Source: Escherichia phage pEC-M719-6WT.2. Taken from it: a DNA stretch of 64,000 nt. Below, in pieces: positions 19,200 to 19,401 of this stretch. The position numbers and the translations under genes are program-made. The stretch is from the sequence record OQ845958.1; one strand, written 5' to 3'. The notes below the pieces were generated by a model that worked only from the letters and a program-made list of their open reading frames with translations, did no database searches and was not told the DNA's origin. Positions within the stretch are counted from its first letter, which is position 1, and every line of letters starts with the position of its first letter.

Positions 19200-19329
19200 G
19201 AAACCGGGTCGCTACCGGTAAGTCGTCGGACTGAAGTTCCCTGGAGTATAGTTCCTCCCACAGTTTTACTGTGTTCTGGTTCTTTACTATCACAGCTGAA
19301 ACGGCGCACCCTTTTAACGGAGTTTTTCC

Positions 19330-19389
19330 AGAGCGGACGGTGCGTCCGGTAGTATGAGAAATCCGAGCGGATGGTGCATCCGGTACTAT
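19330..19389 (+). repeat. tandem pair of 26-nt hairpin repeats with compensatory base changes
   Basis: GAGCGGACGGTGCGTCCGGTAGTATG and GAGCGGATGGTGCATCCGGTACTATG; stems CGGACG/CGTCCG vs CGGATG/CATCCG. Confidence 0.6.
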
Positions 19390-19393
19390 GGAA

Positions 19394-19401
19394 TATAAAT
19401 A
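19394..19401 (+). promoter_or_regulatory. late promoter box TATAAATA
   Basis: exact octamer 32 nt upstream of IP-like gene at 19433. Confidence 0.5.

Follow-up and report, generated by a model that had tools for sequence, protein, structure and literature searches.

A T4 rnaD homologue and a hairpin-bearing late-gene cassette downstream of the tRNA genes in Escherichia phage pEC-M719-6WT.2

Escherichia phage pEC-M719-6WT.2 is a T4-like phage of the Gaprivervirus type, with EAWsc9, ECML-359, and VR20 as its nearest records. In the 64,000-nucleotide (nt) stretch of its DNA considered here (sequence record OQ845958.1; hereafter the window), an interval behind the transfer RNA (tRNA) genes carries two similar hairpins upstream of a late promoter. 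From sequence comparison, this interval (19200-19432) is the junction of two unrelated units: a homologue of the T4 stable-RNA gene rnaD, followed by the leader of a late-gene cassette that ends in an open reading frame (ORF) of 127 amino acids (aa), ORF127. The reading that is tentatively preferred, and to which slightly less than an even chance is given as a whole, comprises rnaD and a cassette leader in which the hairpins are made on read-through RNA only, a long-range helix occludes the ribosome-binding site, and the hairpins are part of the leader fold. Homology, the boundaries of the cassette, covariation in the hairpins, conservation of the leader, the complementarity, and the predicted folds are shown by the analysis; that transcription reads through, that translation is occluded, and what the hairpins specifically do are the inferred parts of this model.

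The rnaD homologue

The gap between the stop codon of a 79-aa ORF (19199) and the next ATG (19433) is 233 nt long. When the gap was compared with phage genomes by blastn, its initial 50 nt matched hundreds of T4-like phages, and the match in RB7 (KM606997) lies within annotated rnaD. In T4 (NC_000866), rnaD is listed as "species 2 RNA" and is located directly after tRNA-Arg, with rnaC next. The 5′ 54 nt (19195-19248) and the 3′ 27 nt (19284-19310) are about 95% and 93% identical, respectively, to annotated T4 rnaD, while the whole 112 nt of the homologue are 97% identical to the T2 allele. By homology, the plus-strand segment 19196-19311 (116 nt) is assigned as the rnaD gene (species 2 RNA; band D), a T2-type allele and a member of a known RNA family. 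It shares with T4 rnaD the strand, a position downstream of tRNA-Arg (here with a start at 19196), the conserved ends (50 nt at the 5′ side and 27 nt at the 3′ side), and a common structural core; it differs in the intervening 79-aa ORF, in a central hairpin of the T2 rather than the T4 type, and in ending with CACCC instead of CACCA. Annotation of rnaD was absent from the GenBank records examined for the closest relatives.

A consensus structure was obtained with RNAalifold from 30 distinct rnaD alleles collected from GenBank and IMG/VR. The core is comprised of three helices: P1 (19203-07/19215-19), a 5-base-pair (bp) hairpin with a 7-nt loop; P2 (19222-28/19302-09), which pairs nt 27-33 with the 3′ end; and P3 (19235-38/19294-97), a short helix with a variable central hairpin between its arms. 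Covariation among the alleles supports this core. Pair 8-24 of P1 is AU in 25 alleles, GC in 3, and GU in 2; pair 40-112 of P3 is AU in 12, UA in 12, and broken in 6; and in UPEC01 and TH41 P3 has been rebuilt as GCCUG/CAGGC. The central domain (19248-19289 in this phage) occurs as three non-homologous hairpin types, represented by T4/RB7, T2, and SP18, which are shuffled among otherwise near-identical phages.

The 3′ end of the gene reads ...GGCGCACC and then C (CACCC), and T2, P479, and VR7 likewise end in CACCG or CACCT. Since several members thus lack the final A, an encoded CACCA is not universal in the rnaD family, and a CCA-like end in this phage would need trimming and addition of A. 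The rnaD RNA presumably arises by excision from the transcript of the tRNA operon. In the literature, RNAs C and D are still listed as having no known function (PMC3014915, PMC9697503, PMC12685909); T4 RNAC and RNAD have been described as late RNAs, and a Northern probe for RNAC has been reported (PMC9697503).

The cassette in the rnaC slot

Directly 3′ of rnaD lies a plus-strand cassette of 505 nt (19312-19816), which contains a leader, a late promoter, and ORF127 and occupies the slot of rnaC. Its left junction is CACC|CTTTTAAC and its right junction GGATAA|GAACACTT. In the sister phages P479, SP18, and VR7, the same flanks enclose rnaC, between ...GGCGCACC and ACACTTGCC..., and T4 also has rnaC here, whereas five T4-like contigs from IMG/VR (L026, L032, L033, L036, and L038) have an empty slot (CACCGAACACTT). 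Since the same flanks hold rnaC or nothing in other phages, 19312-19816 is regarded as a 505-nt insertion or replacement. By alignment, the slot alternates between rnaC, nothing, and the ORF127 cassette. In GenBank, the cassette was found in 15 phages only, all of which are of the Gaprivervirus type.

The segment downstream of the cassette (19817-19883, plus strand) comprises a conserved flank, ACACTTGCCTTGCAGGTGGAACCCC, and the strong intrinsic terminator that belongs to the tRNA/stable-RNA operon and has its stem at 19854-59/19872-77 and a T run; the segment is 80% identical to the sequence that follows rnaC in T4, T2, and RB7. In the five contigs with an empty slot, GAACACTTGCC and the terminator stand directly 3′ of rnaD, and rnaC is naturally absent. 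With T4 rnaC (species 1 RNA), the cassette shares the genomic slot alone, which comes directly after rnaD and is followed by the ACACTTGCC flank and the terminator. Sequence similarity is nil: blastn at word size 7 of 19312-19816 against rnaC of T4, RB7, and T2 gave zero match, the hairpin region showed no homology to rnaC or rnaD by blastn, and rnaC is absent from the window. As judged from these comparisons, the cassette has replaced rnaC or filled its slot. The initial annotation had proposed that the hairpin-bearing region might be the counterpart of T4 RNAs C and D; this is right insofar as rnaD is present (19196-19311, a segment that had not been picked out there), but the hairpins are not part of it, and rnaC gave way to the cassette. 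The other suggestion made there, an element for protein binding or processing, may still apply.

Structure and selection of the hairpin pair

The two hairpin units are located at 19331-19356 and 19365-19390 on the plus strand, one base downstream of the starts first given for them (19330 and 19364); the description of two 26-nt units, each with a 6-bp hairpin and a GTG loop, was otherwise accurate. Each unit begins with GAG. In unit 1 the stem is formed by 19334-39/19343-48 around a GUG loop at 19340-42 (CGGACG-GTG-CGTCCG), and in unit 2 by 19368-73/19377-82 around a GUG loop at 19374-76 (CGGATG-GTG-CATCCG). In a repeat search, the units were 88% identical and 34 nt apart, and on folding both hairpins were predicted with pair probabilities of 0.87-0.99. 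Two of the three differences between them, 19338/19372 (C/T) and 19344/19378 (G/A), are compensatory and turn a C-G pair into U-A, as had been pointed out in the initial annotation; the third (19352/19386, G/C) lies outside the stem.

The motif is unique in the window. A degenerate 21-mer of the hairpins has two sites only (19334 and 19368), with 0.00 expected from shuffles, and a dispersed-repeat or PeSL-like family within the window is ruled out. Two other candidates were set aside, a GUG-loop match at 853, which is inside a 603-aa ORF, and one at 28698 on the minus strand, which is an ordinary terminator. The latter corresponds to a hairpin, GTTCCG-CAC-CGGAAC followed by TTTT (28684-28700), whose loop is complementary to GUG and which lies directly upstream of an ORF (28726-28995) with an N-terminus of the capsid targeting sequence (CTS) type. 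Exact-pattern matches in three IMG/VR contigs (L006, L008, and L009) are due to chance, in GC-rich coding DNA. No similar hairpins were seen upstream of the other late promoters of the window.

The spacer between the hairpins (ATGAGAAATCCGA, 19354-19366) resembles the 5′ end of rnaD (ATGAGAAACCGGG, 19196-19208), and each of the two is then followed by a hairpin ending in CCGGTA; this likeness may reflect chance or an old duplication.

In the 15 carriers, 100% of the stem cells of the alignment pair, and all substitutions within the three proposed helices (the two hairpins and the promoter-spanning helix treated below) keep pairing. These are A-U to G-C at 19337/19345 of unit 1 in six carriers, A-U to G.U at 19371 of unit 2 in TH44 and TH40, and G-C to G.U at 19429 (C19429U) of the promoter-spanning helix in YenP8. 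Over the entire leader (19323-19432), 6 of 110 sites are variable, compared with 44 of the 127 third-codon sites of ORF127 (Fisher p = 2e-8).

A search with the leader only (blastn) gave a weak match in Kosakonia phage 305, a Kanagawavirus. This phage has a pair of hairpins with GUG loops, CAAGCG/CGCUUG and CGGACG/CGUCCG, at a distance of 35 nt; GATAAATA comes next, and then a gene starting with MLNFNEFITESVELVTEAG. The same module occurs in the Enterobacter phages IME523, Q7622, and CIP9, with UGGACG/CGUCCA as the second hairpin. The 15 carriers and these four Kanagawavirus phages yield seven distinct hairpin units from two genera. Among them, five of the six stem pairs show double-sided changes with every cell paired, a score that none of 500 shuffles reached (0/500), while no change is seen in the GAG on the 5′ side, the G-C pair that closes the loop, the loop GUG itself, or the G that follows the stem. 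In addition, the G.U variants of the hairpins pair on the plus strand only. Pairing is thus kept in 15/15 carriers and in the Kanagawaviruses, and the selection on structure that had been suspected from the two copies alone is borne out by covariation in relatives and by the conservation of the leader; by these comparative data, the hairpins are identified as real structures selected for pairing.

Covarying stems with an invariant loop, closing pair, and flanks are the pattern of recognition hairpins, which raises the question of whether the hairpins are operators. A trans-acting factor, either an RNA-binding protein of phage or host or an RNA, would then recognize GAG, the stem, and G(GUG)C twice at a spacing of 34-35 nt, and would control the processing, stability, or translation of transcripts entering the gene of the injected protein. 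The conserved two-copy layout and spacing (34 nt here, 35 nt in Kosakonia phage 305) would suit such a factor. On the other hand, there is no known candidate for the factor, the two genera have different cargo proteins, which makes autoregulation by the product unlikely, the motif occurs at one locus per genome, and several lineages dispense with the hairpins, so that operators are considered rather improbable. A similarly small chance is given to the broader proposal that the pair is an undescribed cis-regulatory RNA motif of the Tevenvirinae, read by a phage or host factor and serving as a dedicated switch, not as a passive structure, for the processing or expression of injected, capsid-targeted anti-defence protein genes behind the stable-RNA operon.

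In the Kanagawaviruses, rnaC is present, no rnaD was detectable in the loci examined, and the hairpins are tied to a late promoter and a CTS gene. Since the same module exists there with rnaC and without detectable rnaD, the hairpins are assigned, on comparative grounds, to the downstream gene module and not to the stable-RNA genes. For the same reason, the complementarity between the hairpin apex GGUGC and GCACC at the 3′ end of rnaD is judged to be coincidental. The distribution also bears on the idea that 19312-19393 is itself a small stable RNA, cut from the operon transcript as a functional replacement of rnaC. Its location directly after rnaD, in the position of rnaC, is in its favor, as is a structured and conserved sequence with AU-rich flanks. 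However, there is no similarity to rnaC and no Rfam match, the folding energy is ordinary in comparison with shuffles (z = -0.75 to -1.5), and the Kanagawaviruses possess a true rnaC homologue alongside the hairpins, which never occur there apart from the late promoter and the CTS gene. This explanation is therefore held to be very improbable.

The promoter-spanning helix and the leader fold

A T4-type late promoter, TATAAATA, is present at 19394-19401 on the plus strand; the perfect match noted in the initial annotation is exact, and it is invariant in 15/15 carriers. From the established geometry of T4 late promoters, transcription would start near 19407-19409. The promoter is located downstream of both hairpins, so that the hairpins would be made only when transcription of the tRNA/rnaD operon reads through. 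The stretch from the tRNAs to ORF127 showed no terminator-like site, and the operon terminator comes after ORF127; a consensus scan of 19312-19432 found no sigma-70-like promoter. Neither hairpin is an intrinsic terminator, and neither has a U tract.

The promoter also lies between the arms of a predicted long-range helix. The 5′ arm (GUUUUUCCA, 19322-19330, plus strand), a predicted anti-Shine-Dalgarno (anti-SD) sequence, is a perfect 9-bp complement of the 3′ arm (UGGAAAAAC, 19421-19429, plus strand), which covers a Shine-Dalgarno (SD)-like GGA and ends 4 nt before the AUG. In both the minimum free energy and the centroid structures of 19312-19445, this helix closes a three-way junction over both hairpins, with P = 0.87 without rnaD and P = 0.93 when rnaD is held in its consensus fold. 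A complement of at least 9 bp arose in 27 of 5000 shuffles (p ~0.005). The leader of the late transcript (19407-19470) is essentially unstructured (-3.3 kcal/mol, z = 0.2).

These features suggest the following scheme. Transcription from the tRNA/rnaD operon would read through into the cassette leader, where the RNA would fold into the three-way junction, with the 9-bp helix closed over the hairpins and the promoter. The helix would bury the ribosome-binding site of ORF127 on read-through RNA, and translation of ORF127 would be confined to late transcripts, in which the 5′ arm is missing. The hairpins, whose sequence as well as pairing is conserved in this leader module, would most likely give the leader a defined fold that resists nucleases where stable RNA borders on messenger RNA (mRNA).

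Translation-occluding leader hairpins have been described for the T4 late genes e, soc, 49, and I-TevI (PMC3014915). In these leaders, the late promoter is likewise situated between the 5′ arm and the ribosome-binding site, and the gene is likewise embedded in an upstream transcription unit, so that only read-through transcripts form the helix. The leader considered here, in which repression is a prediction, differs in that 90 nt separate its arms and two additional conserved hairpins lie between them, where the T4 leaders form a single local stem-loop. Homologues in Kanagawa-, Kagamiyama-, and Winklerviruses have a different promoter-spanning helix of 8 bp, GAAUAUGA with UCAUAUUC, which ends beside the SD sequence. 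Elsewhere in the window (12320-12390), another late promoter (TATAAATA, at 12347) has AAAGCCTCC before it and, after it, TAGGAGGCT, the SD sequence of a 149-aa ORF (12383-12832); AGCCUCC and GGAGGCU form a 7-bp anti-SD/SD pair that spans this promoter, with the same logic as in T4 gene e. The second helix in other genera and the pair at 12347 make the occlusion model more credible.

Several observations weigh against the proposed scheme. When 19196-19470 is folded freely, the anti-SD helix drops to P = 0.08, and pairings with the 3′ end of rnaD and an extended hairpin 1 are favored instead; an alternative partner of the 5′ arm, GAGAAAUCCG (19356-65), is transcribed earlier, so that a kinetic trap is possible. 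Changes in the length of an A run or U run bulge the 9-bp helix in four carriers. The anti-SD sequence is not conserved in the Kanagawaviruses, whose hairpins are found upstream of the 5′ arm, outside the helix, and behind a terminator-like hairpin, which means that read-through may be low there. A thermodynamic contribution of the hairpins to the long-range helix is unsupported, because their disruption in silico leaves the helix no weaker, and occlusion accordingly does not explain why the hairpins are conserved. In the EcS1, CHI14, and Vettismorki lineages, a single non-folding hairpin remnant is left while the gene and the promoter persist, and the metagenome contig L040 likewise has one such remnant, so the hairpins are not indispensable; by its sequence, the lone remnant looks like the product of a deletion between the two hairpin loops. 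The regions upstream of two distant ORF127 homologues contained no hairpin pair, and that of L040 only the degenerate remnant. Finally, independent substitution events are few, and recombination is evident among the carriers. The occlusion model thus accounts for the overall leader better than for the hairpins, which may organize the leader fold, block nucleases, or bind a factor.

Blocking of nucleases could also be the entire role of the hairpins, as exonuclease or processing barriers independent of translational control. In one version, the two GC-rich hairpins would stop the 3′-to-5′ decay of untranslated read-through RNA by PNPase/RNase II before it reaches the rnaD and tRNA precursors; alternatively, they would mark the cut between stable-RNA precursor and mRNA, in the manner of REP elements or the stable intercistronic hairpins of T4. 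The hairpins lie exactly between the stable-RNA genes and the mRNA in both genera, in the Kanagawaviruses directly after the terminator-like hairpin of the operon, with AU-rich single-stranded stretches on both sides; pairing is selected, and loss in some lineages fits an accessory role. Nevertheless, stem stability alone would suffice for a barrier, yet the GAG flank, the closing pair, and the GUG loop are invariant across genera while the stems vary, and rnaD and the tRNAs are themselves structured. A barrier independent of translational control is thus considered unlikely, at something over one chance in five.

Comparison with stem-loop/promoter cassettes

Cassettes of PeSL (promoter-early stem-loop) elements and ORFans have been described in T4-type phages (PMC2839356, PMC4122927). 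As in these, a composite of stem-loop and promoter stands before an orphan gene exchanged in a hyperplastic region. The promoter in the present case is late (TATAAATA), whereas that of PeSL is sigma-70 early; the hairpins lack a U tract; they occur at one locus per genome instead of in dozens of dispersed copies; and their stems covary, unlike the near-identical GGGG...CCCC stems of PeSL.

This resemblance is one point in favor of a DNA-level element, with the palindromes serving as PeSL-like recombination substrates for movement of the cassette, or as a structure or operator for the late promoter. Like the PeSL and ORFan cassettes (PMC2839356, PMC4122927), the orphan cassette lies in a hyperplastic region and has the element at its head, the remnant in EcS1/CHI14 looks like a recombinational deletion between the two GGTGCG loops, and in both genera about 8-11 bp separate the hairpins from the promoter downstream. 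The cassette junction, however, is 20 nt upstream of hairpin 1 and not within a hairpin, dispersed copies of the motif are absent from the genome, and there is neither an adjacent sigma-70 promoter-like site nor a U tract. Stable cruciform extrusion would require a palindrome longer than 6 bp, and the symmetric compensatory changes together with the G.U variants point to pairing of plus-strand RNA. DNA-level roles are therefore less likely, with about one chance in ten. The hairpin-led cassette is a variant of known T4 themes, namely leader occlusion, stem-loop/promoter orphan cassettes, and hypervariable internal proteins.

ORF127 as a candidate internal head protein

ORF127 (19433-19816, plus strand; 127 aa) is a candidate internal head protein with the N-terminus MLTYAEFL. 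Among the carriers, it varies at 44 of 127 third codon positions and at 1 of 254 first and second positions, which marks it as a genuine gene on which purifying selection is strong. Among 5.8 billion proteins it makes up a single cluster; 1.8 billion representatives include three weak relatives, and it belongs to no Pfam or PHROG family. Its N-terminus MLTYAEFLNRNTITE resembles a CTS (MKTYQEFIAE-like); M1, E6, and F7 are invariant across nine CTS-type N-termini, while residue 10 is R and not E, and the nearest L/I-x-E motif is ITE at residues 13-15. CTS-like N-termini were also found in the distant relatives of ORF127 and in three other ORFs of the window (MKTYQEFI). The product is probably an injected, capsid-targeted internal head protein.

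The T4 internal proteins IPI, IPII, and IPIII carry a CTS (PMC3012670). ORF127 likewise has a CTS-like start, a late promoter, a position beside the tRNA cluster, and membership of a hypervariable orphan family. It differs from them in that similarity to known internal proteins is undetectable past the N-terminus and in having R10 instead of E. Capsid-targeted proteins of this type form a class that includes anti-restriction proteins.

Neighboring genes and annotation of the locus

Two tRNA genes precede the interval on the plus strand, tRNA(CAU) at 18792-18867 and tRNA-Arg(UCU) at 18868-18944, both detected by ARAGORN and by the Rfam tRNA model (62 and 74 bits for the pair). The former is called tRNA-Met by ARAGORN and tRNA-Ile2 in the annotation of EAWsc9. 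Aligned with T4 tRNA-Ile and RB7 tRNA-Met(CAU), it gives a mean column identity of 80% (3 sequences), and it may be an AUA-reading tRNA-Ile.

Between tRNA-Arg and rnaD lies the 79-aa ORF (18960-19199, plus strand; phrog_33509, unknown function), which is annotated in relatives. Its TGA stop codon (19197-19199) overlaps the initial bases of the rnaD homologue (AUGAG..., 19196-19200). In T2, a different ORF is inserted, and its TAA stop codon is at the equivalent position by the rnaD start.

The gap itself contains only short, non-conserved ORFs, and single-base insertions or deletions (indels) among relatives at ~19316 and ~19424, together with the variable length of the rnaD center, would shift the frame of any of them. 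A coding reading was therefore rejected, since the indels and the non-homologous rnaD centers disrupt every ORF, and the interval is non-coding, as initially annotated. In GenBank records, coding sequences for a "hypothetical protein" have been placed over rnaD, rnaC, and the hairpin leader (L011, 568-720, plus strand; L012, 623-748, minus strand; L018, 621-779, minus strand; L003, 1573-1844); given the indels and non-homologous segments among relatives, they are regarded as spurious. An Rfam search of 18400-20000 (E <= 10) returned the two tRNAs only, with nothing resembling rnaC or rnaD, and cmscan of 19200-19432 (E <= 10) gave weak chance matches touching 19200-19233 (PrrF and ZFAT-AS1), far under the gathering scores.

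A conserved segment of about 130 nt with tRNA-like features was also noticed in Kosakonia phage 305 (L041, 1690-1850) and in the metagenome contig L040 (1110-1240). It has a T-arm-like GGTTCGA(G/T)CCC, lies between rnaC or tRNAs and the terminator, and is unannotated. ARAGORN and Rfam made no call in this segment of L041/L040, which may be a further stable RNA of the operon.

Implications for T4-like phages

The locus illustrates phage genome evolution with mostly known kinds of parts. Current understanding is not overturned, and the use of the findings lies in the annotation of T4-like phages and in a defined target for experiments. An unannotated rnaD gene is now placed in the phage lineage of the EAWsc9/ECML-359/VR20 type, and rnaD, a 50-year-old RNA, gains a covariation-supported core with swappable central hairpins. 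The neighboring rnaC is naturally dispensable, and its slot is a site of cassette exchange. If true, occlusion of ORF127 would carry the paradigm of T4 gene e over to a leader that is long-range and multi-branched. More broadly, at least two genera have a conserved leader module of two hairpins linked to orphan proteins that are expressed late and capsid-targeted.

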